A stretch of DNA of 64,000 nt from Thermoproteota archaeon (GTDB taxonomy: Archaea; Korarchaeota; Korarchaeia; Korarchaeales; Korarchaeaceae), in the NCBI GenBank assembly GCA_026986575.1, contig JALSOH010000004.1, positions 640,001 to 704,000 of the forward strand. The letters run 5' to 3'. A program made the translations under genes and the position numbers. Under the pieces are notes generated by a model. It did no database searches, was not told where the DNA came from, and worked only from the letters and a program-made list of their open reading frames with translations. Shown one piece after another: positions 7,632 through 47,996 of this stretch; positions within the stretch are counted from its first letter, which is position 1, and each line of letters opens with the position of its first letter.

Positions 7632-8678
7632 ATGAGAAAGTCAGTAGTGGCATTGGCTGTCATATCGTTGGTAGATGCTGTTACTCTGTGGATTTCTCAG
7701 GTACTAGGTCCATTCCCATCAGTCGTTCCGTTAGGAAACCCGACAGCTTACAGAAACCTATATGTGCATGTCCCCATCTCAGTATCTACGTATTTCCTAT
7801 TCACATTAGGCTTCCTTCTAGCGCTTGCGTACCTTCTAAAAGGAAGAAGCTGGATGGAAGAGACGGCCCACTCATTCATTGTAGCAGGTCTCGTGATGGG
7901 ATTCTCCACTCTAGTAACTGGGATGGTATGGGCATCAGAGTCGTGGGGCTCCCCTTGGAATTGGGATCCGAGAGAGACAGGAGTTCTCTTCATGTTCCTT
8001 GCCTTCCTCGTCTATCTAGCTGTCAGATCGAGCATAAAGGATCCTGACATAAAGCCTAGGATCTCAATGGCATTTGCCGTAGCTGCCTACGCAACGATCC
8101 CTTTAAGCTTCTTAGTTCCCTATCTAATGCCCAGTCTCCACCCTATCATGCCAGAGACTAGCATGTTCATAAAAGGGGGGCTTACTCCCCTGATCTTTGG
8201 AGGCAGGATTATCCTAGTCCTATTGGAAGGCGTACTTCTAGCTCTTCTCATGAGATCTGGAGGCGTGAGGAGTGCGAAATTGGCAGTAATTCCCGTCGTT
8301 CTGTTGGCAGTGCTGCTTGTAGCAATGCAACTACCCCCTAACTTGGCGGGAAGTGCAAGTGGGGCATTTAAGGTCCAAGTGATCTCGGGTAATATGGAGA
8401 ACGGAACCCTGTACCTGAGGGTAAGGTCCTCCCAAGGATCTTACAACCTCATCTATAGAGGGAAGCCACCGATAAACCCACTTTTCGTCGTGTTTAGAGG
8501 TGAGAGGAAGCTGACCTTGGAGAAGCACTGGCTGCTGGTGGAGGGCAGGGTTGAGGACAGTACGATAGTGGCCAGCAAGCTGAAACTCATACCTTACTGG
8601 GGGAATTCTGTGAACTCCTTGATATACGGGCTAACCCTTTTCACCCTAGCCTACTTGGCAGGGAGGGAGAGGCGATGA
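7632..8678 (+). CDS. ccmC: Cytochrome c maturation heme-handling protein CcmC with a C-terminal extension
   Basis: YVHVP, WWD domain WASESWGSPWNWDPRET, and SLHP conserved His. Confidence 0.85.
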   Translation: MRKSVVALAVISLVDAVTLWISQVLGPFPSVVPLGNPTAYRNLYVHVPISVSTYFLFTLGFLLALAYLLKGRSWMEETAHSFIVAGLVMGFSTLVTGMVWASESWGSPWNWDPRETGVLFMFLAFLVYLAVRSSIKDPDIKPRISMAFAVAAYATIPLSFLVPYLMPSLHPIMPETSMFIKGGLTPLIFGGRIILVLLEGVLLALLMRSGGVRSAKLAVIPVVLLAVLLVAMQLPPNLAGSASGAFKVQVISGNMENGTLYLRVRSSQGSYNLIYRGKPPINPLFVVFRGERKLTLEKHWLLVEGRVEDSTIVASKLKLIPYWGNSVNSLIYGLTLFTLAYLAGRERR

Positions 8679-9088
8679 AAGGAGTGATATTAGCAGCATC
8701 AATCGCTTTGGTGGTCCTCTTAGTGGGGTATTTGGCCATAACCTCAAGCTCTTATGAGCAGGTATCCCAGCTCTCCAAATACACGAAACCTACGGTGGTC
8801 ACGGTTAGGGCCCTAGTGGCCGACATAGAGACCCTACCCGAGAAGGACTTGATACTCTTCGTGTTGAAGGACGAGAACGGGAGCAAGATATACGCCTTCT
8901 ACGGTCTTACCAGATTTATCAGTCAGTACGGCGCTCCACCATCTCACTCAACGGTGGAGCAGGAGGTCATCATGAGGGGAACGTTCTACCCCAAGAAGAT
9001 GGGGGATGTACTGGGGAGGATGGAGATAAAGGAGATTTTACAGGGATGTCATAAGGCCTATGAGGCTCCACCAGCCACGGGTGGTTAA
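8675..9088 (+). CDS. ccmE: Heme chaperone CcmE, CxxxY variant
   Basis: N-terminal TM, OB-fold-sized domain, and C-terminal CHKAY (CxxxY instead of HxxxY); lies between ccmC and ccmA. Confidence 0.75.
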   Translation: MKGVILAASIALVVLLVGYLAITSSSYEQVSQLSKYTKPTVVTVRALVADIETLPEKDLILFVLKDENGSKIYAFYGLTRFISQYGAPPSHSTVEQEVIMRGTFYPKKMGDVLGRMEIKEILQGCHKAYEAPPATGG

Positions 9089-9718
9089 GTGCTATTGGAG
9101 TTCAGGGATGTGTGGAAGAGCTTTGGGAGCGGGTACGTAATAAGGGAGATAACGCTCACTCTCGGAGAAGGAGAGATGATAGCCATAGTGGGCCCCAACG
9201 GTTCCGGCAAAACCACCATTCTGAGGCTCGCCTCGGGCCTCATAGCCCCTTCGAGAGGAGAGGTCCTGGTGAGAGGAAAGGATGCTAGAAGTCCAGCTGC
9301 TAAGGCCCTCCTCGGTTACGTTCCACACTCCCCACCACTCTATGGAGACTTGACCGTTTGGGAGAACCTAGTATACTACGCTGGCCTCTATGGGTATGCT
9401 GACCTGTCTAAGGTGGACTCCATCCTGGCGGAGCTTGGCTTGGACGCCTTCTTGAACCGAAGGGTCGCTGAGTTGAGCTACGGGTGGAGGAAGAGGGTAG
9501 ACTTGGTGAGGGCTCTTCTCCACGATCCACCTCTGCTCCTCATTGATGAACCGTTTTCTGGATTGGATGACGCTGGAAGGAGGTGGTTAATTGAGTTCCT
9601 CATTCAATCGGTGTCAGCTGGCAAGACAGTGGTCATTACATCGCCAAGGGCTGATGTAGAACTGGGAGCTACGGTGTACGAGATCCAGGGGGGAAAGCTA
9701 AATGCTGTTACAGGTTAA
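9089..9718 (+). CDS. ccmA: Heme maturation ABC ATPase CcmA
   Basis: GPNGSGKT, LSYG, LLIDEP; located in the ccm cluster. Confidence 0.85.
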   Translation: MLLEFRDVWKSFGSGYVIREITLTLGEGEMIAIVGPNGSGKTTILRLASGLIAPSRGEVLVRGKDARSPAAKALLGYVPHSPPLYGDLTVWENLVYYAGLYGYADLSKVDSILAELGLDAFLNRRVAELSYGWRKRVDLVRALLHDPPLLLIDEPFSGLDDAGRRWLIEFLIQSVSAGKTVVITSPRADVELGATVYEIQGGKLNAVTG

Positions 9719-10346
9719 GAGAATCCTATGGAAGGATCTGAAGCTTGAGGCTAAGAACCTGCCGGAGCTGGGTGGAGCAGCCATATTTTCTGTAGCATCA
9801 TCCAGTCTACTAGGCTTCTCTATGAGCAGATTACCAGTTGAGGATCCCTTACCCCTAGCTGGAACTGGCCTCATGCTCATTGCGCTTTTCCTCTCGGTTT
9901 TCACGTCAGTCATGACTGTCGTGAGGGAGGAGGATTTGGGCACATTGGATGGGGTCAGAATGTCGCCTGTTGAACCGGTAACCTTCTTCTTGGCTAAGCT
10001 CCTACTAACCTTCTTCCTACTGGAGACCCTGATCACGCTGTCCTTCTTGACTACCTTGGGCTTGTCAGGCTGGACGGAGGGAGCGGTTTACCTCTATTCC
10101 CTCGTGGCCTCCTCAGGAGTTTATCTGGCGTCAATATCTGCTCTCTCCTCAGCTATTTCAGTCTACTTGAGAGCAAGAGGAGTTCTCCTACCGACGATTA
10201 TCCTCGTGCTGAGTCTCCCAATAATCCAAGAGACCCTCTCATTCCTGACCTCTGGGGATTACTCCCGTACCGTTATCTTGGCAGTTTCGGGTCTCCTATT
10301 CTCCCTGATCGCCTCTTGGTTGGCTGGTTACATTCTGGAGGTGTGA
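9702..10346 (+). CDS. ccmB: Heme exporter protein CcmB
   Basis: WKDLKLE, REEDLGTLD, FLAK and LLP..L..P motifs; multi-TM. Confidence 0.85.
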   Translation: MLLQVKRILWKDLKLEAKNLPELGGAAIFSVASSSLLGFSMSRLPVEDPLPLAGTGLMLIALFLSVFTSVMTVVREEDLGTLDGVRMSPVEPVTFFLAKLLLTFFLLETLITLSFLTTLGLSGWTEGAVYLYSLVASSGVYLASISALSSAISVYLRARGVLLPTIILVLSLPIIQETLSFLTSGDYSRTVILAVSGLLFSLIASWLAGYILEV

Positions 10347-10349
10347 ACT

Positions 10350-11417
10350 ATGAGGGTAAGCTATCAGAGCATCTTGGCCATCGTAATCGTGTTGACATCC
10401 GTAGGCCTCGGCCTCTTAGTCTCGTTCGGCGGCAAGAGTGCAGCCGTACGGGTCTCCGCAGGAGGGATAGATAGGCGGCTTAAGGAAGGAGTAGTAGCTG
10501 TCATGTTCTGGAGCGAGACCTGCTCATCCTGTGAGTTGATGAAGCCCTACTGGATGGTGGTGGAGAAGTCTCCACCTGAAGGAATCCGGGTAGTGGATGT
10601 GCCTCTCGTTCCCGGAGAGACTGACCGGCTCTTCATGGAGTACGGGATCACGGAGACCCCTACCTTCCTAGTCCTCAGGGACGGTGCGGTGGTGGCTAAG
10701 ATCGTGGGCCCGGTCCAGTCCGAGGACCCGGCCCTTTATTTCAGGGAGTGGATCGAATCGGCCGCTAAAATGACGGGTACCTCTAACGAGCAGGTCTCTG
10801 GATGGGGACCGGCCACCCTAGCCCTGCTTCCCATTTTGGGCGCACTAGTCGCTTTATCTCCATGCTCAGCGCCCATAGTCGCTGCTTACGCAACTATGGG
10901 AAGGGTAAGAGGAAAGGGAGATTACGCGGTCTGTTTAGGCTCCTCATTTGTCGGTACCATGGTCCTCGGTTCAATGATGGTCCTCGCAGCTTCCTTCGTG
11001 GCGGGCCTCATCAAAGGGTTGACCTTCGCCCTAGCTGTGGCTGTCATACTGTTTGGTTCGCTCACGATCTTTACTGCCTCTGAATCATGCCCCTTACCGG
11101 GCCAGAGGGTGAGAGGGTTACTATCATCCGGTCTTCCAGCAGCATGCTTTAGTTTCGGCTTGGTATCTTTCCAGTGCAGCCTACCGTTGCTCGCTGGCTA
11201 CATAGCACTCATAAGCGCAACCAGAGATGTGCTCGCAGGGGTTACGGGTGTAGCTCTACTCGCGCTGGGCATGGCAACAGCACTAGTCATCTCCCTTTAC
11301 CTAGCGAGGAGGGCGACAAGCGTATTCTCCAAAGTCATGAAGAATCCTGCTTGGCTAGAGAGAGTAAGTGGGGGCGTACTTGTGGCCTTGGGCATATATC
11401 TCTTACTTATGGGGTGA
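10350..11417 (+). CDS. Thioredoxin (CxxC) - CcdA/DsbD-beta fusion for apocytochrome thioreduction
   Basis: TM helix, then FWSETCSSC and cis-Pro TPT; C-terminal LSPCSAP and QCSLP with several TMs ending RVSGGVLVALG. Confidence 0.8.
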   Translation: MRVSYQSILAIVIVLTSVGLGLLVSFGGKSAAVRVSAGGIDRRLKEGVVAVMFWSETCSSCELMKPYWMVVEKSPPEGIRVVDVPLVPGETDRLFMEYGITETPTFLVLRDGAVVAKIVGPVQSEDPALYFREWIESAAKMTGTSNEQVSGWGPATLALLPILGALVALSPCSAPIVAAYATMGRVRGKGDYAVCLGSSFVGTMVLGSMMVLAASFVAGLIKGLTFALAVAVILFGSLTIFTASESCPLPGQRVRGLLSSGLPAACFSFGLVSFQCSLPLLAGYIALISATRDVLAGVTGVALLALGMATALVISLYLARRATSVFSKVMKNPAWLERVSGGVLVALGIYLLLMG

Positions 11418-11421
11418 ACTT

Positions 11422-14400
11422 ATGCACTACACAGGATTTATAGCCTTTTTGGGCGGTGTGATCCTCCTTGCCGATATTGCATACTCCTCTATCAAGGAGA
11501 AGGTAACCAAGCTTGGAATCGTATCATATTTAGTCCTCCTCGTCAATTGGTTCCTTTACGTAAGGGCCTTCGTGACTCAGGATTACACCCTCAAGCCCGT
11601 CTACGAAACATCCTCTATGGGACTTCCCCTCATATTCAAGATAGCCTCAAGTTGGTCCAGCGGTGGTGGTAGCCTTTTCCTCCTAACCACAGTCTTAACT
11701 TTCGTCGCCCTTATTCACAGAAGATATCATAAGGACCTTATACTGTCTACAGGTTATGGTGCACTGATACTCACATCGCTAGCATTGGCCTTCCTTAATG
11801 GAGCTTTCGAATCCTTCCCTATTAAGGTGGCCACTGGAATGGGGCTCAACCCTTTACTTAAGAGCCCTTGGATATACCCTCACCCCCTCTCCACTTTCAC
11901 AGCCTATGCATTAATCGCGGCCTCGGCGGCTTCGCTTTATAGCGGGCATGAAAAAGCTAGTGAGCTCTTGGCTAGGGCCGGTTGGCTCCTGTTGACCTTA
12001 GGAATAGCAATAGGTGGATATTGGAGCTATGTGACCTTCGGGTGGGGCGGCTACTGGGCTTGGGATCCAGTAGAAACGGCTGAACTTACTCCATGGCTTG
12101 CTCTAACGGCCTCTTTCCACGTGAAATCCCTTGACAGGAAGCTCTCATACGCTACTCAGATGACTGCCGCGGGAAGCGTCTATCTAGCCATATTAGTCAC
12201 GAGAGTTGGTATATCTCCCCTCCACAGCTTCGCCTCTCCTCAATCCCTAACGAGTGCGCTGACACTAATGCTGACCTTCCTCTTCATAGCTGAGGGAGTA
12301 AGGGGAGGATACAGGAGGTTGGGATCCGAGATAGGCAAGGTGATCAATAGCCCTTACAAGACGGGACTCACCTTATCTTACTTCTCCCTATTCATGATGT
12401 TCTTGGTGCTCTTTTCGGTACTCGCGGTGGGATCCATAGGCAGTACTTTGGGAATGAGTATCGATGTCCCTCAGATGGACTCAGGAATAGATTTCTTCCA
12501 CCCCATTCTCTTTCCATTCGCCCTCCTACTCATGGTATCCCTCCCGATGTGCACCTTGGGGGCGAGATTGGGATGGAGGGAGATACTGGGGTTAATAGAG
12601 GGCCTCTCAATAGTATCTGCCATCCTGCTCTATTTGACCTTCAGGAGGGACATCATCTGGTCACCATCGAGCTCGCTCACTACGAACTTAATTATATCGA
12701 TACTGCTCCCCTTCACAGTAGCTGGCCTCTTCTCTGGACTGGCGGCTCTCTACATCTACGCTAGGGACAGATTAAGTACTATGTCCTCCGTATCGCTGCT
12801 ACACGCTGCCATGGCCCTAACGATGCTCGGCATACTTATGAGCGGGCCCTTCGCTTATAACAGGTCCTACTTTAAGGATGTGATCCTTCCCTACGGTCAT
12901 AGGCTGGATATAGACGGATTGGGGGTGGAACTTAAGGGATACGAGTACAGCCTCTACGGCGGCAAGGTGGACGTCTACACCCCATATGTCGGGAAGTCGG
13001 ACATATACAAGAGAGCAAGCCTCATCATGCTCTCCTTAGCGATTAACTTCGGTGATGCCCTACGGGAGATGAAGGCGGGAGAGAAGCGGCTGGAAGAAGC
13101 GGGCATCTTGGGAATCTACAGAAGCCTTAAGGGGGGTGTTAAGATGGCTGGAAGCTACAGAGCCAATGCCAGTGCTGTCCTAACGGAAGTGACTAATGCA
13201 TCCAAGGAATCAAAGGACCTCGGTGAGGTATCTGTTTCCGTCTCAGATCCCATGATAGCGGCCTTCTTAGGTGCTAGCGGTAATGAGACCACCCTTAGGA
13301 TTATGGTTGTGGGAAACGTAACCCTTAGAGGGGACTTGGCTGAGATGAGAGCCTCTCCCACTGTTATGGTGAATCTCACGTTCCAGAGACCACTCCTCCT
13401 GACCGTCCCTAACGGAACTGTGGAGATAGGGAGGGCATCATTGGTATTCTTTGACATGCTGAAGCAAGGTCACTCTCTACCCCGGAACCTCAATGGTATA
13501 ATAGTAGCTCCAAACTCAACTCTCGTAATAGAGAAGGGCGTGTATCGCGGGGAGAGAGATGTAGATGTACCGGCAACTATGAGGGGAAGGGATGTGGTCC
13601 TGTATGTGGCGTTCACCCAAGGAACCATCTCATCTGACATTCTGAAAATACTAGAAGATCACGGTCTGTCCAGACTGCTCACCAACGGGACATTCACCTC
13701 TAAGCTGCTGAGTGACCTGCTTCCGGGGAACTGCAAGGAACTCATCCACGAGCGTCAAGAGGAGGCTATCAACTGCCTAGGATACCTTCCAATACCAAAG
13801 GAGCTGCCAGAGGGTGCAAAGCTCTCCCTCACGCTTGAGGCTGGAGGATCGAAGGAGCTGTTGGAGATAAGGTTCGACGCCAACGGCGAGGCTCAGGGCA
13901 TCCACGGTCTTGTCGCTCACGTGCTGACCCTACCTAGCGGTCTGGGCGACCTGTACATGGTGTTCCATCCTCCCGTCGTCAAGGACAAGAAATGGAGCAT
14001 AGGCTTCCACGAGCTAATGGTTTACTACCTTCACGAATCGTTCAGGGGGCTTAACGAGGAGCAGAAGCTTGCCTTAGCTTCTCTCTTCGCCTCCTCCTAC
14101 TTGGGTCAGTCCGTCCAGGAGGAGATGATGATCCCCTACACGTTGGACCTCTACGACTTGGCCCAAAGCTTCGACCCCTCTAACTCGACCCTCATGACCT
14201 CAGGCGCGTTCCTCCAAGTGAAGGTGATACCGTACGTCCAGTTGCTGTGGTGGGGGATAATCCTAATGGTCCTTTCAGAGCTCTACCTGATTATAGAGGG
14301 GCTGAGGAGATCCAAAACGACCTCAGCTCCCAAGGAACAGCAGACCGACTTGGGCCGGGAGCCAGAGGGAGATGGGAATGGTGAGCCCGGGGAGGGATCT

Positions 14401-40719: not shown

Positions 40720-41514
40720 ATAGAGGAGGATTCCCTCACTACGAGACTCAAAAATGTACTCCATCTCACGGAATACGAGGCTAGGACATATCTAGCCCTG
40801 ATTGTGCATGGAAGTATGACTATCGGAGAATTGAGCGAACTGAGCGGGGTTCCGAGGGCTAAATGTTACGAGATCGTGAGAAATCTCGTTCGAAAAGGAA
40901 TGATAGTGATGATCAGCAGTAAACCGGCTAAATACGCACCCCTACCAGCCAAGCAGGGAATAACCAATAGGATTGAGCAGTTGAGGAGGGAGCTTGAGAG
41001 GAAAGTAGTGGAGGCAGAGCAACTTCTGGAGGAAATAAGGGAGATCAGTGGTCAAGGATCCGTCAGGGAGGCGCAGATGATGATTATAGAGAGCCACGAG
41101 TCTATCCTCTCCAACTCAGTTAAAGATGCTGTAAACGCGGAGAGGGAAGTACTGGTGGCGCTATCTCAGAAGCCCGCTAGAATAGATTGGAGTAAGTATG
41201 CTAAGGACATCTTGGACTGTATGAGAAGGGGAGTGAGGTTCAGGTTCTTGGTACCCTCTCTGGATGTGTTCAGTAGTAGATTCAGGGAAATACTGGAGAG
41301 AAGTACACTAGAGCCTCTTTCAAAGAACTTAGCAGAGATTAAGGAGACGAGAGCTGTGAAGGTGCCCTTCATGGTAATAGACAGCGACACAACATACCTC
41401 TATATCTCAGATCCCGAGACTAACACCCTTAGGACCGCTGTCAGGATAATGGACAGCAGGATGGCGGAGCAGATGAAGGAGCTCTTCAACAGATATTGGG
41501 AGATGGCTCATTAA
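40720..41514 (+). CDS. TrmB family transcriptional regulator (probable non-canonical ATA start at 40720)
   Basis: LTEYEARTYLAL lies upstream of the ORF-track start and is in frame with ELSELSGVPRAKCYE..L..KG; C-terminal effector domain. Confidence 0.85.
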   Translation: MEEDSLTTRLKNVLHLTEYEARTYLALIVHGSMTIGELSELSGVPRAKCYEIVRNLVRKGMIVMISSKPAKYAPLPAKQGITNRIEQLRRELERKVVEAEQLLEEIREISGQGSVREAQMMIIESHESILSNSVKDAVNAEREVLVALSQKPARIDWSKYAKDILDCMRRGVRFRFLVPSLDVFSSRFREILERSTLEPLSKNLAEIKETRAVKVPFMVIDSDTTYLYISDPETNTLRTAVRIMDSRMAEQMKELFNRYWEMAH

Positions 41515-41816
41515 CACTTTTGTTTCAGTCTGACGAGCTTGAACACAACTGTTCCACCACATGTGAGCGGGGGCCCGGGATCAGGACACTGCACACGTCC
41601 AACATCCCCCTCACCTATTCCCAATTGATCTGCAGGCACTCCGTGCGAGAAGGGGGAAAGAAGGGTTGCCATAGCAGTCAGGGCGTGGAGACAGATCCTC
41701 ACATCCTCCTCCCCTTCGATGTAGAAGCCTCTCAAGGTGAAGGAATCGCCCTTGCGGTATTTAGCTGCGCAATATCCTCTAACCTCCTCCACCTCTATCT
41801 CGACTCTGTGTAGCAT
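41511..41816 (-). CDS. TIGR04076-family Cys-rich protein
   Basis: V.EVRGYC....GD.F, CLHAL, QCPDPG...GTVVF. Confidence 0.8.
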   Translation of the reverse strand: MLHRVEIEVEEVRGYCAAKYRKGDSFTLRGFYIEGEEDVRICLHALTAMATLLSPFSHGVPADQLGIGEGDVGRVQCPDPGPPLTCGGTVVFKLVRLKQKC

Positions 41817-41822
41817 GAAGGC

Positions 41823-42404
41823 TCACCTCAAGAGTATCTCGTCCAGTCTGACTAGTACTGCTCCTTCCCTTACCATCTCGTCCTTGGCCCTCTCCTCATT
41901 ACTCGGATCTATACCCCTCACTGCATCTTCCACGATGAAGACCTCGAATCCCAGCCTCAGCGCATCTAGGACGGTGGCCCTAACGCAGTACTCGGTCGCG
42001 ACGCCTCCCACGAAGAGCCTCTTCACCCCTCTCTCCTTGAGGATCTCCTCCAAGTCAGTCCCCTCGAAACCCGAGTACGCATCCTTATCTCTATCTGTCG
42101 CCTTGGAAACTATCATGGCACCTTCGGGGACCATCAGATCGGGGTGAAACTCAGCACCCTCGCTTCCTTGGACGCAGTGAGGGGGCCAAGGACCGCCTCT
42201 CTGCTTGAAGGATACGTGGTCGGGAGGGTGCCAGTCCCTAGTGTAGATCACGGTGAAACCCCTCTCGGCGAAATGAGAGATCAGGACATTCAAGGGTGCC
42301 ACCACCTCGTCCCCCTTGGGGACGGGGAGGGCGCCCCCAGGCATGAAGTCCCTCTGAACATCCACCACGATGAGCGCGGGATTCCGGACCGGTGCTACCC
42401 TCAT
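41823..42404 (-). CDS. pncA: Nicotinamidase/pyrazinamidase
   Basis: VDVQRDF.PGGAL, DWHPPDH.SF, WPPHCVQG, YSGF, ATEYCV. Confidence 0.92.
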   Translation of the reverse strand: MRVAPVRNPALIVVDVQRDFMPGGALPVPKGDEVVAPLNVLISHFAERGFTVIYTRDWHPPDHVSFKQRGGPWPPHCVQGSEGAEFHPDLMVPEGAMIVSKATDRDKDAYSGFEGTDLEEILKERGVKRLFVGGVATEYCVRATVLDALRLGFEVFIVEDAVRGIDPSNEERAKDEMVREGAVLVRLDEILLR

Positions 42405-42460: not shown

Positions 42461-43507
42461 TCAGACCTCCAGCTCATCCAAGAAGTCGGGAATCCAAGAG
42501 AACATATCCTGCGAGACCCTGGCCACCATGTCCACTCCCACTACCTCGCTGGGGTAGACGGGGATGTAGGACCTCACCAAGGGTCCGAGGTCCCTCTCTA
42601 TCTCGGCCATGTACCCGAGCTGCTCCCTGTACTTGTTCCTTATGTACTCATTTGTCGTCGCCTCAGCGACTGCCTTAGGTATCACCTGATTCACGATGAC
42701 CCCGCCGACGGGAATGTCGAAGCCCTTCACCATCTTGATGAACCTCTTAACTACCGCTATGGGTAAGGAGAGCGGTAATGTGACGAAGAAGAACGCAGTG
42801 AGCTCCTCGTTGAGCAGAATGTCCTTGACCCTGTTGAACCTGTCTTGCATGGACAGAAGGTCGGCCATTAGGGGATCCTTCTTTATCTCCTCCATCACCT
42901 TCTCCTTGCGGAAGGACAGCTTTACCCTCAACGATAAAGCCTCCTTCCTGCTCTCAATCATCCTCTCAAGCCAAAGCCCGTAGATCTTGCTCAAACCTAT
43001 CAGTCTGGCCGCGTTAGCGACGGCGGCAGTGTCGAAGACAACCACATCATACTCCTCACCCTGCTGGAGCACCACATCCATCATCTTATCGAACATCGCC
43101 GACTCTTGGAAGGCCGGGTTCGTGGTAGCTATGTCAATGAAGGGCTTAGGATCCATGGGTATGTCAGCCCACTTAAGGAACTCCGAAAGCCTCTTCGCAA
43201 TGTTTTGCTTGTACTTCTCCACCACATCATCTATCTCCACTTCGAGGGCGTAAAGATTAGGAGCCCCCTCCACAGGCTTTATCACTCCTCCCCTCAGGTC
43301 CTGACCAAACAGGCTTGATAGTGAGTGTACAGGGTTGAGGGACACAAGAAGAGTCTTCTTCCCATCCTTGGCGAACCTGTATGCAAGGCCAGCAGCTGAT
43401 ATAGTCTTCCCGACGCCCCCTTTACCTCCGGTGAAGAGGAACTTGAGCTTAGGCTTCTTGGAGAGGAACTCGGGCATCAACACCTTCTCCTCCAAGCTCA
43501 CCACCAT
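42461..43507 (-). CDS. ArsA/Get3(TRC40)-family ATPase with degenerate switch I/II (paralog B)
   Basis: GGKGGVGKT; switch I reads SLNPVHSL, switch II reads DTAAVAN; IVNQ; no cysteines. Confidence 0.88.
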   Translation of the reverse strand: MVVSLEEKVLMPEFLSKKPKLKFLFTGGKGGVGKTISAAGLAYRFAKDGKKTLLVSLNPVHSLSSLFGQDLRGGVIKPVEGAPNLYALEVEIDDVVEKYKQNIAKRLSEFLKWADIPMDPKPFIDIATTNPAFQESAMFDKMMDVVLQQGEEYDVVVFDTAAVANAARLIGLSKIYGLWLERMIESRKEALSLRVKLSFRKEKVMEEIKKDPLMADLLSMQDRFNRVKDILLNEELTAFFFVTLPLSLPIAVVKRFIKMVKGFDIPVGGVIVNQVIPKAVAEATTNEYIRNKYREQLGYMAEIERDLGPLVRSYIPVYPSEVVGVDMVARVSQDMFSWIPDFLDELEV

Positions 43508-44499
43508 AGCAGGTCCCTCCTCGAGTTCATCAGGTCCTCAGCGACCTTCGCAATCATCTCCAATCCTTTGGGCTCTCTATCATACATGGGAATTATTGCA
43601 GCGATCAGGTCTTCGAACTTCTCTCTTATCTCCAGCAAGTGTTTCTCCTGCATCTCTATTTTCTTTCTCAAGAGTTCTGGAAGATCGGGCTTGTTCAACA
43701 GGTCCCTAGGATATATCTGATTGACGATCACGCCGGACATCTCTATGTTCAGCTCCCTGAACATCTCTAGCGCGCGTTCCGTATCCAGTATGGCCATCTT
43801 CTCCGGTACCATTACCATGAAGAAGGCCGTCTTCTCGGAGTTGGTCATCAGCTCGGTGAAAGTGGTCATCTTCTTCCTTATCTCCTCCAGTTCCTTTAGG
43901 ACCATGTCCTCGGTCTGCATCCCTCCCTTCAGAGTTGCAGCCACGGCCTCGTACTCAGCAGCCTCTTTCCTGGCCTCAGTTATCTTGTCCACCCAGGCGC
44001 TGAGGATCTCAGCCATCGCCACCATTCTGACCCCATGACCGAATGGAGGCATATCGAAGACGTAGAGGTCATACTCTCCCGAGGCCACCAGATCTGCCAT
44101 CGCATCGTACGTCGCTGATTCGTACATAGCCGGCTCGGCGGAGGTGCTATCTATGTACTCTTCAATCTCTTTGGGGAGTTCCTCCAGTCCATACATGTCC
44201 ATTATCTTATGTTTAATCTCCTGTTGGTACTCGGCTATTTTCTTGTCCGCGTCTATCTCTACTACGTAAAGATTGGGCGCAACTTCCACGACTCCCTTAC
44301 CGAAGAGGTCCCTCTCGAAGATGTCGCTCAGTGAAGCTTGGGGGTCAGTGCTGAAGCAGAGGACCTTCTTCCCCTCATTCACGGCCATATGGTAGCTAAG
44401 GGCGGCACTGCTAGTGGTCTTTCCCAAACCACCCTTCCCAGCGAACACCACCACCTCTATATTCGGCTTCCTCTCGAAGAATTCAGCTAAACCCACCAT
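43498..44499 (-). CDS. ArsA/Get3(TRC40)-family ATPase (paralog A)
   Basis: GKGGLGKTT, STDPQASLSD, EIDA, DMPPFGH, PEKMA..DT, IVNQ. Confidence 0.9.
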   Translation of the reverse strand: MVGLAEFFERKPNIEVVVFAGKGGLGKTTSSAALSYHMAVNEGKKVLCFSTDPQASLSDIFERDLFGKGVVEVAPNLYVVEIDADKKIAEYQQEIKHKIMDMYGLEELPKEIEEYIDSTSAEPAMYESATYDAMADLVASGEYDLYVFDMPPFGHGVRMVAMAEILSAWVDKITEARKEAAEYEAVAATLKGGMQTEDMVLKELEEIRKKMTTFTELMTNSEKTAFFMVMVPEKMAILDTERALEMFRELNIEMSGVIVNQIYPRDLLNKPDLPELLRKKIEMQEKHLLEIREKFEDLIAAIIPMYDREPKGLEMIAKVAEDLMNSRRDLLWW

Positions 44500-44518: not shown

Positions 44519-44827
44519 TCAGCCGCTCAGTAGATCGGTGAAGTCTCTCTCCCTGAACAGCCTCTCCTTCCACGACTTTATATTGGGAACGACGTAGGGT
44601 AAGATCTTCAACGAGTAGTAGGGTGGGATTATCGGGAAGCCCAGCATGTCACCCAAAGTCATCAGCATGAAGAGGTGCTCCATGTGCATCCTGGTCTTCA
44701 GGGCCGCGGTAGCTGCCCCGTGGACAGCGAAGCCATAGAGCACGCCCTTAAGGGCCTCGGAAACTCCTTCCTTCTTTTCTTCCTTCTTTTCCTTATTCTT
44801 TCTACCGAATAACGGGATAGGGATCAC
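44519..44827 (-). CDS. Small CstA/ArsA-associated protein (paralog 1, about 100 aa)
   Basis: LFMLMTLGDMLGFPIIPPYYSLKILPY....W...RERD motif. SD GGAGGTGA near 44823-44831 puts the start at GTG 44827 or ATC 44818; the longer ORF-track version overlaps cstA. Confidence 0.75.
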   Translation of the reverse strand: MIPIPLFGRKNKEKKEEKKEGVSEALKGVLYGFAVHGAATAALKTRMHMEHLFMLMTLGDMLGFPIIPPYYSLKILPYVVPNIKSWKERLFRERDFTDLLSG

Positions 44828-44839
44828 CTCCCAATCGAG

Positions 44840-44862
44840 CATGAAAAAGGGAAATAAAAGGT
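44840..44862 (-). terminator. T-rich terminator-like tract immediately after cstA
   Basis: Minus-strand ccttttatttccctttttc. Confidence 0.4.
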
Positions 44863-46596
44863 TTAGGGAGAGACAGCCTTGGCCTCTACTTCTCCTTTTC
44901 TGACCTTGAAGTAGGCGCTCCAGAGGGCGTAGCTCATGTAGATGCCAAGCACGAAGAGCACTATGCCTATGACGAAGAAGAGCGCATTGAGGGCCCACGC
45001 CGCCCCGGGATACTGGGTCAGCGGCGGTTTCGCCAGCGGCTTCTTTATACCGAAGGTACTCAGTCCGAAGGTGTATATCTCCCAGAGGAGGGCGGAGAGG
45101 GTGACGATGGTCATGAACGCGGCTGGCACGGCGGAATACCACGAGGGCTTGTTCATCTTGGCAACATAGAAGGCCACCAGCGTGAGGGCCATCGCAGCCA
45201 GCAGCTGGTTGCTACCACCGAAGTATATCCACAAGTTTATCCAGCTTCCGGTCAATGCGAATATGATGGGCAGTATCAGACCTATCACGGTGGCTACATA
45301 CTTGTTCCCGAGCCACTCCCAAGATCCCCTGAAGAGCTCGGCGCTGAACACACGCCAGTACCTTGTGACGAGCGCCTGCACAGTTATAGCATAAATGACG
45401 AGGAATATCGAGAAGAACGTCAGTAGATACGCCTTTGAAGCATCCCCTCCGAGGAACGGGGCGGTCAGCAAGGTGGCTCCGTTAACGAAGGCCGATATCT
45501 TACCCTTAGCTATGAGATCCGGCGAGACGACCATGTAGGCAGCCAGAGCTGAGGTGGCGAGCAGACCCTCGGTGAGCATTGCTCCAGCCCCTACTGGCCT
45601 GGCATCGGTCTCCACGTCAAGCTGCTTCCCAGTCGTGGAGGTGCTGACGAGGCTGTGCCATCCCGATATCGCACCGCATGCTATAGACACGAAGAGGATC
45701 GGGAATATCGGACCTACGTTCTGGACGTACCATCCCTTGAACGCTGGCTGGATAAGCTTCATGCCGGTAGCAGGAGATATGAGGGCGCCGAATATTATCA
45801 GCAGGACCCCTCCTATGGCCGGAAATACTGCCACGAAGTTCATCGGGGTGATGAACTTGGGAAGCGGGACTATGGCTCCGACGAAGAGTATTATCGCGAG
45901 GATTATCGACCACACTTGGATGGACCACGGGCCGAAGAAGTCCTTAGGCGGCCACGCCACAGCAGTGCCTACCCCAACACTGATCAGCGTGAGTATTATC
46001 GCCAGTGCGGTTACGCCGAAGATGTTAGCCTTGTACTTGTAGAGGAGCTCTCCCACTATGAGACCGGTTATTATGATGCCTATGGTTGCTATGAAGGAAC
46101 CTGGGAAGACGTTCCAGAATAGCGATACAAGATAGATGAACACCGCCGAGATTATCAGCAGGTAGAAGAGCAAGTATGCCAGCAGTATCTTCCTTCCCCT
46201 CTCTCCTATAGCGTTATAGACGAGGGGACCCATGGATCTGCCCTCGTTCCTGACCGTGAGCATTATGGTGCTGTAATCTTGGACCCAACCGATGAACATG
46301 TTCCCTATTACTATCCAAATGAGGGCTGGCAGCCAGCCGTAGGCGACGGCTATGAACGGTCCCAAGATGGGTCCCAAGGCAGCTATGCTCTTGAACTGGA
46401 ATCCATAGAGGACGTATCTACTTACTGGAAAGTACTCCACGCCGTCCAAGTACATGTGGGCTGGTGTAACCTTCTTCTCGCTTACCTCCCAGATGTGCTC
46501 GTCGACCCACTTGGCGTACACGTAGTAGGCGAATCCGTAAGCAACTAGAGCCCCGATTATCCAGAGGGAGGGGGTCTCCAAGAACGCTACCTGCAT
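44863..46596 (-). CDS. cstA: Carbon starvation protein A (CstA) family transporter
   Basis: TPAH..DGVEY.P, FKSIAALGPILGP, GWLPA, IACGAISGWHSL, GAMLTEG, FGGSNQLLA. Confidence 0.92.
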   Translation of the reverse strand: MQVAFLETPSLWIIGALVAYGFAYYVYAKWVDEHIWEVSEKKVTPAHMYLDGVEYFPVSRYVLYGFQFKSIAALGPILGPFIAVAYGWLPALIWIVIGNMFIGWVQDYSTIMLTVRNEGRSMGPLVYNAIGERGRKILLAYLLFYLLIISAVFIYLVSLFWNVFPGSFIATIGIIITGLIVGELLYKYKANIFGVTALAIILTLISVGVGTAVAWPPKDFFGPWSIQVWSIILAIILFVGAIVPLPKFITPMNFVAVFPAIGGVLLIIFGALISPATGMKLIQPAFKGWYVQNVGPIFPILFVSIACGAISGWHSLVSTSTTGKQLDVETDARPVGAGAMLTEGLLATSALAAYMVVSPDLIAKGKISAFVNGATLLTAPFLGGDASKAYLLTFFSIFLVIYAITVQALVTRYWRVFSAELFRGSWEWLGNKYVATVIGLILPIIFALTGSWINLWIYFGGSNQLLAAMALTLVAFYVAKMNKPSWYSAVPAAFMTIVTLSALLWEIYTFGLSTFGIKKPLAKPPLTQYPGAAWALNALFFVIGIVLFVLGIYMSYALWSAYFKVRKGEVEAKAVSP

Positions 46597-46717: not shown

Positions 46718-46984
46718 TCATACGGTTTCCGGGACCTCCTCCGTTATATCCCTCTCCCTGAGCTGCCTCTGCTTCCAACCCTCTATCTCAGGCAACAGAT
46801 AAGGAAGGAGCCTCAGCATGATGGGTGTGGTCATGAGTGGGAGGCCAAGCAGTTCTCCCATGATCAGGAGGTTTACCGCATCCCTCAGCTTAGCCGCCTC
46901 CTTCCTCGTCTCCCAGTAAAGGTCGAAGTAGAAGAGCCCGAAGAGGAACTCCTTAGCAGCTCTCTTAAATTCCTCCCATCTCAT
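46718..46984 (-). CDS. Small CstA/ArsA-associated protein (paralog 2, about 88 aa)
   Basis: KEFLFG...LLIMGELLGLPLM....LRLLPY....W...RERD aligns by eye with paralog 1; probable start ATG 46984 (MRWEEF). Confidence 0.78.
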   Translation of the reverse strand: MRWEEFKRAAKEFLFGLFYFDLYWETRKEAAKLRDAVNLLIMGELLGLPLMTTPIMLRLLPYLLPEIEGWKQRQLRERDITEEVPETV

Positions 46985-47438
46985 GGCAGAGGACACCCAC
47001 ATCCTCGAGTATCTTCATTACATCCAGATGGGACGGGCCCTTAAACATTATCTGAATGGTCCTATCCGTGACATCGCAGTAATGGACCGTGAACAGATGA
47101 TTCCTATTCCTACCCGTTATGATTCCCCTCCCCACGTAGTACGCGGCTGGATGACCCCCCATCTCCGTTTCACCGGTCCTCTCTATCCTAATCCTAGGTT
47201 TCAGATCCTTCCTGCCAGGTCTGACCACGATCCTCATGTCCACAGCGTAGCTTGGGGTCGCTAATACATGATAGCTCTCCCCGTAGGTCACGTAAGCTAT
47301 GTGACCTCTCCTCTCGTACTGAGTAATGTCCGATCCGTAGGCCGTGGCCATGACTTCCGCTTCATCCGGCACGGTGAGTGTTAGGAAGTCCACTGTACCG
47401 AACAGGGAACTGACTGCCCTTATGTGTACCCGCTTCAT
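46965..47438 (-). CDS. Hypothetical protein (157 aa)
   Basis: Uninterrupted ORF overlapping the start of paralog 2; beta-rich, with YCD and CH near the C-terminus. Confidence 0.65.
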   Translation of the reverse strand: MKRVHIRAVSSLFGTVDFLTLTVPDEAEVMATAYGSDITQYERRGHIAYVTYGESYHVLATPSYAVDMRIVVRPGRKDLKPRIRIERTGETEMGGHPAAYYVGRGIITGRNRNHLFTVHYCDVTDRTIQIMFKGPSHLDVMKILEDVGVLCHEMGGI

Positions 47439-47486: not shown

Positions 47487-47996
47487 TTGGGACGTATGTA
47501 CGAAATCGAGGTAGTGATAGCCATATCGGCCGTGCTAGCTGGCTGGTATTTCTTGGGCTCCTATCAGAATAGGAAGCTAACCTCCAAAGTGTGGAGTGCA
47601 GTGCTGGAACAGATGGAGGAATTCGCCTCGGAGATGGCTGCTAGGGAGCTTGGCGGCTCAGCTTTCATAGCCGTGGCTAAGGGAACTCGATCTCCATTTA
47701 GAAGGATTGAGATGGCCTATACAAGCCTCCCGAGGGAGATCTTGATCAACTACCTGATATCTAAGGCGATGGGGAGGAGAGATCTCCTCTCAGTGGTGGC
47801 CGACTTCAACACCACCCCGAAGGGCGAGAGAACTCTGAAGGACTTTCCCGATTTGGCGGTGGATGCGCTCTCCCTAAGGATACAAGGAGGGAATCCTAAC
47901 CTCAGAATCATCATGTCAGCCGAGCAGGTGCTGAATGGCTCCCTTGAGAGGATCTTATCAGCAGTCAGGGCAGCGTGCAGCTCAGGCCTGTGCTGA
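47487..47996 (+). CDS. Membrane-anchored protein resembling CCDC47/DUF1682 (PAT complex subunit)
   Basis: N-terminal TM ending YFLG...N.KL...W, then LPRE.L.NYL....GRRD; similarity judged by eye only. Confidence 0.55.
   Translation: MGRMYEIEVVIAISAVLAGWYFLGSYQNRKLTSKVWSAVLEQMEEFASEMAARELGGSAFIAVAKGTRSPFRRIEMAYTSLPREILINYLISKAMGRRDLLSVVADFNTTPKGERTLKDFPDLAVDALSLRIQGGNPNLRIIMSAEQVLNGSLERILSAVRAACSSGLC

Follow-up and report, generated by a model that had tools for sequence, protein, structure and literature searches.

Two adjacent ArsA/Get3-family genes in a CstA transporter operon of Korarchaeia, one of them with asparagine in place of the switch-I aspartate

Two paired ATPase genes

We describe a pair of adjacent genes, which we will call A and B, in the genome of a Thermoproteota archaeon of the family Korarchaeaceae (assembly GCA_026986575.1). 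They are found in a stretch of 64,000 nucleotides (nt) of contig JALSOH010000004.1, positions 640,001 to 704,000 of the forward strand. This whole stretch will be called the window and all coordinates refer to it. By homology both genes belong to the ArsA/Get3/TRC40 superfamily of ATPases, but the protein coded by B is without the catalytic aspartate of switch I. The two reading frames have the same direction, with A upstream of B and an overlap of 10 nt. Their features are listed below; A rows and B rows are those of a joint alignment which is described in the next section.

42461..43507, minus strand: gene B, a paralog of the ArsA/Get3 family (intradimeric Walker A type) with degenerate catalytic residues; open reading frame of 348 amino acids (aa)
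43403..43426, minus strand: P-loop of B, GKGGVGKT (G28-T35, Lys29 being intradimeric and Lys34 that of Walker A); invariant in 39/39 B rows
43325..43342, minus strand: switch I of B, SLNPVH (S56-H61); N58 invariant in 39/39 B rows
43334-43336, minus strand: AAC codon of B Asn58, which replaces the catalytic Asp; the letters gtg tcc ctc aac cct gta cac translate as V S L N P V H
43013..43033, minus strand: switch II of B, DTAAVAN (D159-N165); the Walker-B Asp is kept, while Pro, Gly and His of DTAPTGH are replaced
42752..42754, minus strand: B Val252, aligned with the canonical trans-acting Glu (ExxR motif); Glu in 91% of canonical domains, Val in 100% of B
42689..42691, minus strand: B Asn273, in a fully conserved C-terminal Asn column; invariant in B, Asn in 100% of canonical domains
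43498..44499, minus strand: gene A, a paralog of the ArsA/Get3 family which retains the catalytic Asp; open reading frame of 333 aa
44416..44439, minus strand: P-loop of A, GKGGLGKT (G21-T28); invariant in 39/39 A rows
44338..44352, minus strand: switch I of A, STDPQ (S50-Q54), from the alignment; the Asp52 codon is at 44344-44346
44035..44055, minus strand: switch II of A, DMPPFGH (D149-H155), from the alignment
43783..43785, minus strand: A Asp239, at the position of the trans-acting Glu, with the carboxylate retained; Asp in 100% of A rows

An initial annotation of the window had placed both genes in the Get3/ArsA family, and the family profiles agree with it. Both proteins are full-length members of the superfamily by PF02374 (231.5 bits for A and 190.5 bits for B, cut-off 24.3 bits), and they are also above the cut-off of TIGR00345 (224.3 and 187.3 bits, cut-off 135 bits). 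They share 32% identity. The nearest solved relatives of both are the archaeal Get3 chains 3zq6 and 3ug6; A is closer to the canonical type than B, with a match to 3zq6 of 195.4 bits vs 139.7 bits for B. In the host genome, which has 1.9 Mb and is 99.7% complete, A and B are the sole full-length members of the family.

The motifs given in the initial annotation (STDPQ and DMPPFGH in A; SLNPVH with its AAC codon, DTAAVAN and GKGGVGKT in B) are all present in the open reading frames and in the minus-strand text. Read at greater length, they are STDPQAS and FDMPPFGH in A, SLNPVHS and FDTAAVAN in B. In terms of the DPAH motif of the superfamily, A has the switch-I aspartate (Asp52) and B has Asn58 instead. 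HMMER alignment to 3ug6 and 3zq6 places SLNPVHSL of B on STDPAHSL, FDTAAVANAARL on FDTAPTGHTLRL and DTAAVAN on DTAPTGH, so that the assignment of the motifs is right.

Residues kept and lost in each gene

The joint alignment contains 39 A, 39 B and 88 canonical domains; we compared the columns in which at least 75% of the canonical domains agree. The switch-I column is sharply divided: Asp in 88/88 canonical domains and in 39/39 A, Asn in 39/39 B. A and B alike retain the two lysines and all the rest of the P-loop, the Walker-B Asp, the Arg which follows switch II and the C-terminal Asn (N260 in A, N273 in B), which we take to be the residue in contact with adenine. The losses found in B alone are the switch-I Asp, the Asp of the "LSD" which comes after it (Ser65 in 87% of the rows) and, in switch II, the Pro, Gly and His. 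In the column of the switch-II His, A has His and B has Asn; in ArsA this His stacks on its twin across the interface (PMC12415280).

The Glu of the E-x-x-R motif is a further point of asymmetry. It is conserved in 91% of the canonical domains and it has become an invariant Val252 in B and an invariant Asp239 in A; A keeps a carboxylate at all three acidic positions. In the ArsA of Leptospirillum ferriphilum the residues Glu215 and Glu507 are hydrogen-bonded to the catalytic water and to switch I of the opposing site (PMC12415280). By alignment, these residues appear to correspond to the E-x-x-R Glu, and thus to Val252 of B and Asp239 of A; the numbering was checked, the chain index being the number in the paper plus one. 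If this mapping holds, B would give no carboxylate to either composite site and A would give one to each.

B is not decaying, since its mean column identity (66%) matches that of A (67%). It is best conserved in switch II and in the charged segment which follows (residues 151-210, with values of 0.87 and 0.84); block 181-210 of A is the least conserved of that protein (0.64). Such a pattern is what would be expected of a pseudo-enzyme specialised in binding.

The asparagine in relatives of gene B

The initial annotation had named an aspartate retained in orthologs of B as evidence against its own reading. The aspartate is absent from all those which could be read: from the 120 closest relatives, from the 51 readable genes of the genome loci and from the 19 rows of the B clade in our tree. 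The closest relatives are the 120 best of 5509 found in the database, with 64-98% identity, and by their source names they come from Archaea and Bacteria. All 120 have Asn, within the motifs S-L-N-P-[V/I]-H-S and D-[T/C]-A-A-V-A-N; 119 were caught by the pattern and the remaining one (P0070) was read directly.

A search in genomes gave 52 loci with a B gene, which also span Archaea and Bacteria. For each motif one B gene is cut; the other 51 read S-[L/F]-N-P-[V/I]-H-S in switch I and FD[T/C/M]AAVAN in switch II. The A genes of these loci are equally uniform, with STDPQAS in 47/47 and FDMPPFGH in 48/48 readable cases. We also carried out a reverse scan of metagenomes anchored on A, from which we kept the 80 best of 504 confirmed loci; 76 of them have at least 300 nt downstream of A. 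The Asn motif was matched in 74 of the 75 B genes found there; the 75th falls outside the pattern and was not inspected. As the search pattern contained switch I of A, the presence of Asp in 80/80 of these A genes is a result of its construction and not evidence.

At a wider scale, in a search of 1.84 billion cluster representatives, the B type forms a small and compact clade. Its 19 rows, which are representatives of clusters at 50% identity, have Asn in 18 cases, Ser in one and Asp in none; the member with Ser also has Thr in place of the Pro. The distant members show variants of switch II (DTASVVN, DTAPTAN, DTAAIGG, DTAPVAL), none of them accompanied by a switch-I Asp. Among the other P-loop domains of the cluster list, 181 read D-P and only two of about 190 copies outside the B clade read N-P.

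These two N-P copies are each one half of a two-domain protein, the N-terminal half of P0253 and the C-terminal half of P0289. A third two-domain protein similar to ArsA, P0273, has S-P in its C-terminal half. One-sided loss of the switch-I Asp may thus recur in the family, independently of the B clade. There is also a second and more distant group of B-like sequences, with STNPVHSL and DTAPTAN, formed by P0121 and the representatives P0243, P0250, P0252, P0265, P0272 and P0274.

Pairing and common history of A and B

The two genes are found together practically always. In 51 of the 52 genome loci an A-type reading frame lies directly upstream of B, and the remaining locus starts inside B. In the opposite direction, 75 of the 76 metagenome loci anchored on A have B directly downstream. 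Of 47 loci, 24 have overlapping frames of A and B and another 19 a distance of 0-30 nt between them, according to the start codons called. In the phylum of the window, 19 of 43 genomes carry a B-type gene, with A adjoining in 18 of them; the 19th B gene is 508 nt from the end of its contig. Four genomes of the same genus, which are 96-99% complete (G014, G015, G018 and G033), do not have the pair, which is therefore an accessory module.

A maximum-likelihood tree of 93 rows was also calculated, with a midpoint root used only for drawing. Its bootstrap has not fully settled, and with that limit the B clade (19 rows) has a support of 100/100, the A clade (14 rows) of 98/99, and the node which joins both clades together with rows P0268 and P0352 of 100/98. 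In a larger quick tree the internal branching of A and B is parallel, with archaeal and bacterial members interleaved alike in both. The pairwise identity matrices of A and B are also correlated, with r = 0.94. A and B are sister clades, and the parallel branching fits one old duplication, after which the two genes would have been transferred as a unit.

Two sequences which might have been taken for fusions of A and B were rejected. P0121, with 693 aa, has an A-like part (SVDPQAS) and a B-like part split by junk similar to a frameshift. A reading frame of 709 aa in locus L038 is merely the frame of B running open over A, which is read in another frame.

The transporter module

Upstream of A we find the other genes of the module, all of them on the minus strand. 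The order is U157, X1, CstA, X2, A and B; from X1 onwards the gaps are 121, 20 and 19 nt, followed by the overlap of A and B. The gene U157 will be described in the last section.

44519..44842, minus strand: X2, small protein of the CstX/DUF7990 type, 107 aa, directly upstream of A
44863..46596, minus strand: transporter of the CstA family, 577 aa; PF02554 with 353.8 bits
46718..47002, minus strand: X1, a second CstX/DUF7990-like paralog upstream of cstA, with its likely start at the inner ATG 46984; NF041419 with 28 bits, below the cut-off

X1 and X2 are paralogous and flank cstA on either side. Both correspond to the Pfam family DUF7990, with an ESM Atlas score of 0.97 to DUF7990 clusters; the match of X2 to NF041419 (cory-CC-star) is 31.8 bits, below the cut-off of 80. 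X2 is found upstream of A in the loci compared, and its core hardly varies among archaeal and bacterial sequences. A second CstX copy gave BLAST matches in 21 of the 52 genome loci; a duplicated CstX has been described in two organisms (Castillo & Saier 2010, PMC2963123).

Among the loci with enough flanking sequence, CstA is present in 31/33 from genomes and 41/44 from metagenomes. The two genome loci without it, L033 and L035, have other neighbours around CstX, A and B (L033:1-5468 and 8050-10225; L035:185-4381 and 8326-13503): lactate-utilisation genes (LUD, CCG), a 2-hydroxyacid dehydrogenase and a glycerate-kinase-like gene. In L035 a transporter of the major facilitator superfamily (MFS) comes directly after the second CstX copy, X1. 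These neighbours hint at a monocarboxylate theme and at a module which is able to serve other carriers.

Comparison with known systems

The gene cluster is already known. Castillo & Saier (2010, PMC2963123) described ArsA homologues of about 330 aa (their clusters 14-18) in operons that also carry cstA and cstX (about 90 aa), sometimes with cstY. Each operon had one or two ArsA homologues and no ars genes, and co-evolution of cstA, cstX and arsA was reported. Adjacent ArsA pairs were noted in two organisms, with 31% and 25% identity, and the Asp of the SXD motif of the single-domain proteins was said to "be substituted only by N". These authors proposed that the ArsA homologues energise CstA through CstX (PMC2963123). 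The gene set which we find is the same: single domains of about 330 aa with cstA and cstX and without ars genes. In that work, however, the Asn is not tied to one member of the pair, a loss of catalysis is not mentioned and a heterodimer is not proposed; nor did we find in the open-access literature a reading of the pair as a heterodimer or as a dimer with a degenerate site. The strict partition with Asp in A and Asn in B, which includes the trans-acting position, appears to be new. The history of A and B as sister clades is likewise an addition of the present work.

ArsA (1f48 of Escherichia coli; 9nbl and 9nbo of L. ferriphilum) shares with the pair its fold, the intradimeric Walker A mechanism and a secondary transporter as partner (ArsB). 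Its two sites are not equivalent, the N site being more competent than the C site (PMC12415280). It differs from A and B in being a single chain, a fused pseudodimer with Asp in both halves, whereas here there are two separate chains. An arsenite pump was also considered and rejected. Against TIGR04291 (ArsA, cut-off 650 bits), A scores 99.1 and B 78.6 bits, as single domains compared with the two fused domains of about 580 aa in ArsA. Of the three metalloid cysteines of ArsA none is found: B has no Cys, A has only Cys48, and both have Ala where ArsA has Cys113. No ars genes (arsB, acr3, arsD, arsR) are found among the neighbours between 37.3 and 49.3 kb.

In the case of Get3/TRC40, the closest solved sequences are archaeal, and B carries in nature the substitution which was used in the laboratory as an ATP lock (D57N). 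Get3 forms symmetric homodimers and has a CxxC motif for zinc and a hydrophobic groove for its client; A and B have no Cys at the CxxC positions, and the groove is not evident. The segment of B equivalent to the Get3 insert (about residues 181-210) is charged and basic, judged by eye. The distribution of A and B is also different, accessory and partly bacterial. By these features (no CxxC, accessory distribution, charged insert in B) the pair does not look like a Get3 tail-anchor factor.

Two other members of the family should be mentioned. BagA and BagB (Rv3679-Rv3680) of Mycobacterium tuberculosis are also coded by two adjacent and distinct Get3/ArsA-like genes, whose products occur as two chains in one crystal entry (PDB 6bs3-6bs5), and they are described as interacting ATPases (PMC10597346). 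Our pair cannot be identified with them, as the profile scores for A and B are far below the cut-offs: 46.6 and 54.7 bits for NF053622 (cut-off 400), 39.1 and 38.1 bits for NF053621 (cut-off 521). They are only distant relatives, although they set a precedent for a complex made of two Get3-like chains. Both of their ATP-binding motifs are reportedly needed. Get3d of plants and cyanobacteria is a natural protein of the Get3 family with a divergent switch I (PMC10248533). In that case the degenerate protein pairs with itself and has an alpha-crystallin domain, whereas B is tied to an intact paralog.

Outside the family, ATP-binding cassette (ABC) transporters with a degenerate site are dimeric motors in which one ATP site is of the consensus type and the other does not hydrolyse. 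This is an analogy only: their fold and catalytic chemistry are unrelated to those of A and B.

Proposed mechanism

The effect of the change from Asp to Asn is known in two related proteins. Get3 D57N binds ATP and does not hydrolyse it, as the initial annotation had said and as is stated in PMC12506534. The D46N/D364N form of ArsA is called a "nonhydrolyzing variant": it binds MgATP in a closed state, in which the Asn holds the catalytic water (PMC12415280). In wild-type ArsA the two sites are already unequal (PMC12415280). Since this substitution stops hydrolysis but not binding of ATP in Get3 and ArsA, the best reading of the pair is a heterodimeric A:B ATPase with one silent partner. We consider it moderately probable. 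The initial annotation had already inferred an obligate asymmetric heterodimer with one hydrolysing and one ATP-locked site; the sequence comparisons all agree with that reading, which is thus partly supported.

In this proposal A and B would be the two halves of a heterodimeric ATPase of the ArsA/Get3 type (intradimeric Walker A), and the heterodimer would be part of a conserved and horizontally mobile module formed by a CstA-family transporter, the DUF7990/CstX protein, A and B. ATP would close the A:B dimer, and turnover would take place only at the site built on the P-loop of A. The B site would keep its ATP, or hydrolyse it very slowly, and could play the role of a latch or a timer. B is probably specialised in partner binding, since it is as conserved as A and most conserved after switch II. 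CstX would link the ATPase cycle to the transporter, in the way in which ArsA is linked to ArsB, and the cycle would energise or gate the uptake of a small carboxylate or peptide substrate.

Several observations weigh against this proposal. The A site is itself not canonical, with DPQA and DMPPFGH instead of DPAH and DTAPTGH, and B gives it a Val instead of the trans-acting Glu; the competence of the A site is thus assumed. Asp239 of A points by homology into the B site, where it could in principle rescue some hydrolysis. No CstA is found nearby in 2/33 genome loci and 3/44 metagenome loci, so that coupling to CstA is not obligatory. One A gene of the 76 has no B downstream (L065, on a contig of 2.9 kb), and a search for longer homologs did not give a clean A-B fusion protein. 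Finally, because of common ancestry the locus counts are not independent events; the Asn arose only once on the tree.

A broader version of the same proposal, which we find rather unlikely, is that CstX, A and B form a portable ATP module, indifferent to the transporter, which converts or gates secondary carriers (usually CstA, occasionally MFS) for the uptake of monocarboxylates or peptides. B would be permanently loaded with ATP and would supply a trans-acting lysine but no carboxylate, A alone would give carboxylates to both sites, and one hydrolysis at A would drive the cycle.

Symmetric dimers are the usual picture of intradimeric Walker A ATPases (ArsA, Get3, NifH, MinD/ParA), and A and B can be seen as an experiment made by nature: B has the change which is engineered in the laboratory as an ATP trap, yet it is as strongly conserved as the intact partner. 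If the portable one-site module were true, the ArsA/Get3/NifH/MinD class would have in it its first natural example of an obligate one-site motor, and there would also be a natural answer about the generality of functional asymmetry in these dimers, a question left open in the 2025 paper on the structure of ArsA (PMC12415280). The A/B system, which is soluble and small, occurs in cultured thermophiles, some of them named by Castillo & Saier (PMC2963123), so that the prediction is directly testable; Symbiobacterium, Pyrobaculum and Thermococcus are among the cultured carriers. Transporters of the CstA family are known as proton-coupled carriers. An operon of Archaea and Bacteria which joins an ATPase to one of them therefore leads one to ask in what way ATP could gate or drive the transporter.

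Alternative explanations

The alternative which survives best, although we consider it doubtful, is a chaperone or targeting factor of the Get3 type, which would deliver a hydrophobic client (CstX or segments of CstA) to the membrane, with no energising or gating of transport. The closest solved relatives of A and B are indeed archaeal Get3 proteins, and the absence of other full-length family members in such a complete genome also goes in this direction. Towards the C-terminus of CstX there is a moderately hydrophobic segment with about 20 polar residues after it; the protein alone folds with low confidence, as a client might. However, the absence of the module from the four nearly complete genomes of the same genus marks it as accessory and not housekeeping, neither A nor B has the CxxC motif, and the segment of B which matches the Get3 insert is charged and basic instead of Met-rich. 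The hydrophobic stretch of CstX is Pro-rich with an invariant Gly-Asp, and its maximum hydropathy of 1.3-1.7 would make it a poor membrane helix.

CstX as a tail-anchored client was rejected, given its borderline hydropathy and its Pro-rich segment; its fold as a single chain, with a predicted local distance difference test (pLDDT) score of 60.6, is uninformative.

It is quite unlikely, in our estimate, that both sites of the A:B dimer hydrolyse ATP, with the B site rescued either by Asp239 of A in trans or by Asn58 positioning the water, and with a rate which is tuned or depends on A. The carboxylate of Asp239 is invariant, at the position whose Glu contacts the opposing catalytic water in ArsA; the Asn of the ArsA variant still anchors that water; and B retains all the binding residues together with its trans-acting Lys29. 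On the other hand, ArsA D46N/D364N does not hydrolyse ATP in spite of having both trans Glu residues, and the same is true of Get3 D57N. B has also lost the Gly and His of switch II, and in one member of its clade Asn is replaced by Ser and Pro by Thr; this looks like a relaxed need for catalysis at this position and not like a tuned catalytic residue.

A third alternative is less likely again. A and B would not pair with each other: A2 would be an active ATPase and B2 a permanently ATP-bound scaffold or regulator, both at the service of the same transporter module. In the solved structures single-domain Get3 proteins are homodimeric. Against it we find the nearly absolute adjacency of the two genes in both directions, with frequent overlap of their frames, and the mirrored subtrees of A and B. 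The reciprocal asymmetry at positions which face the partner (His vs Asn in switch II, Asp239 vs Val252) is also difficult to reconcile with separate homodimers; B2 would have no catalytic carboxylate at either site, and its conserved trans-acting Lys29 would be left without a role.

An error of sequencing or assembly behind the Asn can be discarded, and so can the decay of B to a pseudogene: hundreds of independent assemblies have the same letters, the frame is intact and B is as conserved as A, and the argument against an error which the initial annotation had drawn from the changes in both switches is reinforced by the clean division of the switch-I column in the joint alignment.

Other genes and sequences near the module

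Two further genes, U157 and U169, are found on the other side of X1.

46965..47438, minus strand: U157, 157 aa, which often accompanies the module; found in 15 loci
47487..47996, plus strand: U169, 169 aa, with an N-terminal hydrophobic segment; hydropathy maximum of 1.78 at residues 7-25

U157 has no match in Pfam or NCBIfam, and Foldseek gave none with E <= 0.001. Its AlphaFold2 model (pLDDT 92) is all-beta and similar to Mog1, PsbP and DcrB; with Mog1 (1jhs_A) it has a Z score of 9.0 and a root-mean-square deviation of 3.8 over 129 aligned residues. The gene overlaps X1 by about 20 nt if the latter starts at the inner ATG. The invariant residues of U157 include His96, Cys121, Cys151 and His152, which could bind a metal. 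By analogy with Mog1 and with a listed "GTP binding regulator", which act on small nucleoside triphosphatases, one may speculate that U157 regulates A and B.

U169 has no Pfam match. It gave weak BLAST matches in 11 loci, with 23-28% identity outside its close kin. Tentatively, it may be the CstY of Castillo & Saier, a protein of about 210 aa with a single transmembrane segment (PMC2963123).

The short contig L065 shows a peculiar arrangement around its A gene. In the region L065:1464-2860, downstream of A, a pair of small genes of about 137 and 116 aa, with no assigned family, occurs in two tandem repeats. Upstream of A there is an open reading frame of 122 aa, which has no BLAST match to the CstX queries.

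In the region of the window between 37.3 and 49.3 kb the neighbours comprise CstA, small proteins, isochorismatase, TIGR04076, TrmB-like regulators, UbiA and a radical SAM protein. The genes which come after B on the same strand belong to the isochorismatase and TIGR04076 families (41511-42404, minus strand). They are faced by a TrmB/DUF7436 regulator (40804-41514, plus strand). These three genes probably lie outside the core module; they are syntenic only in the closest relatives (loci L007-L011).

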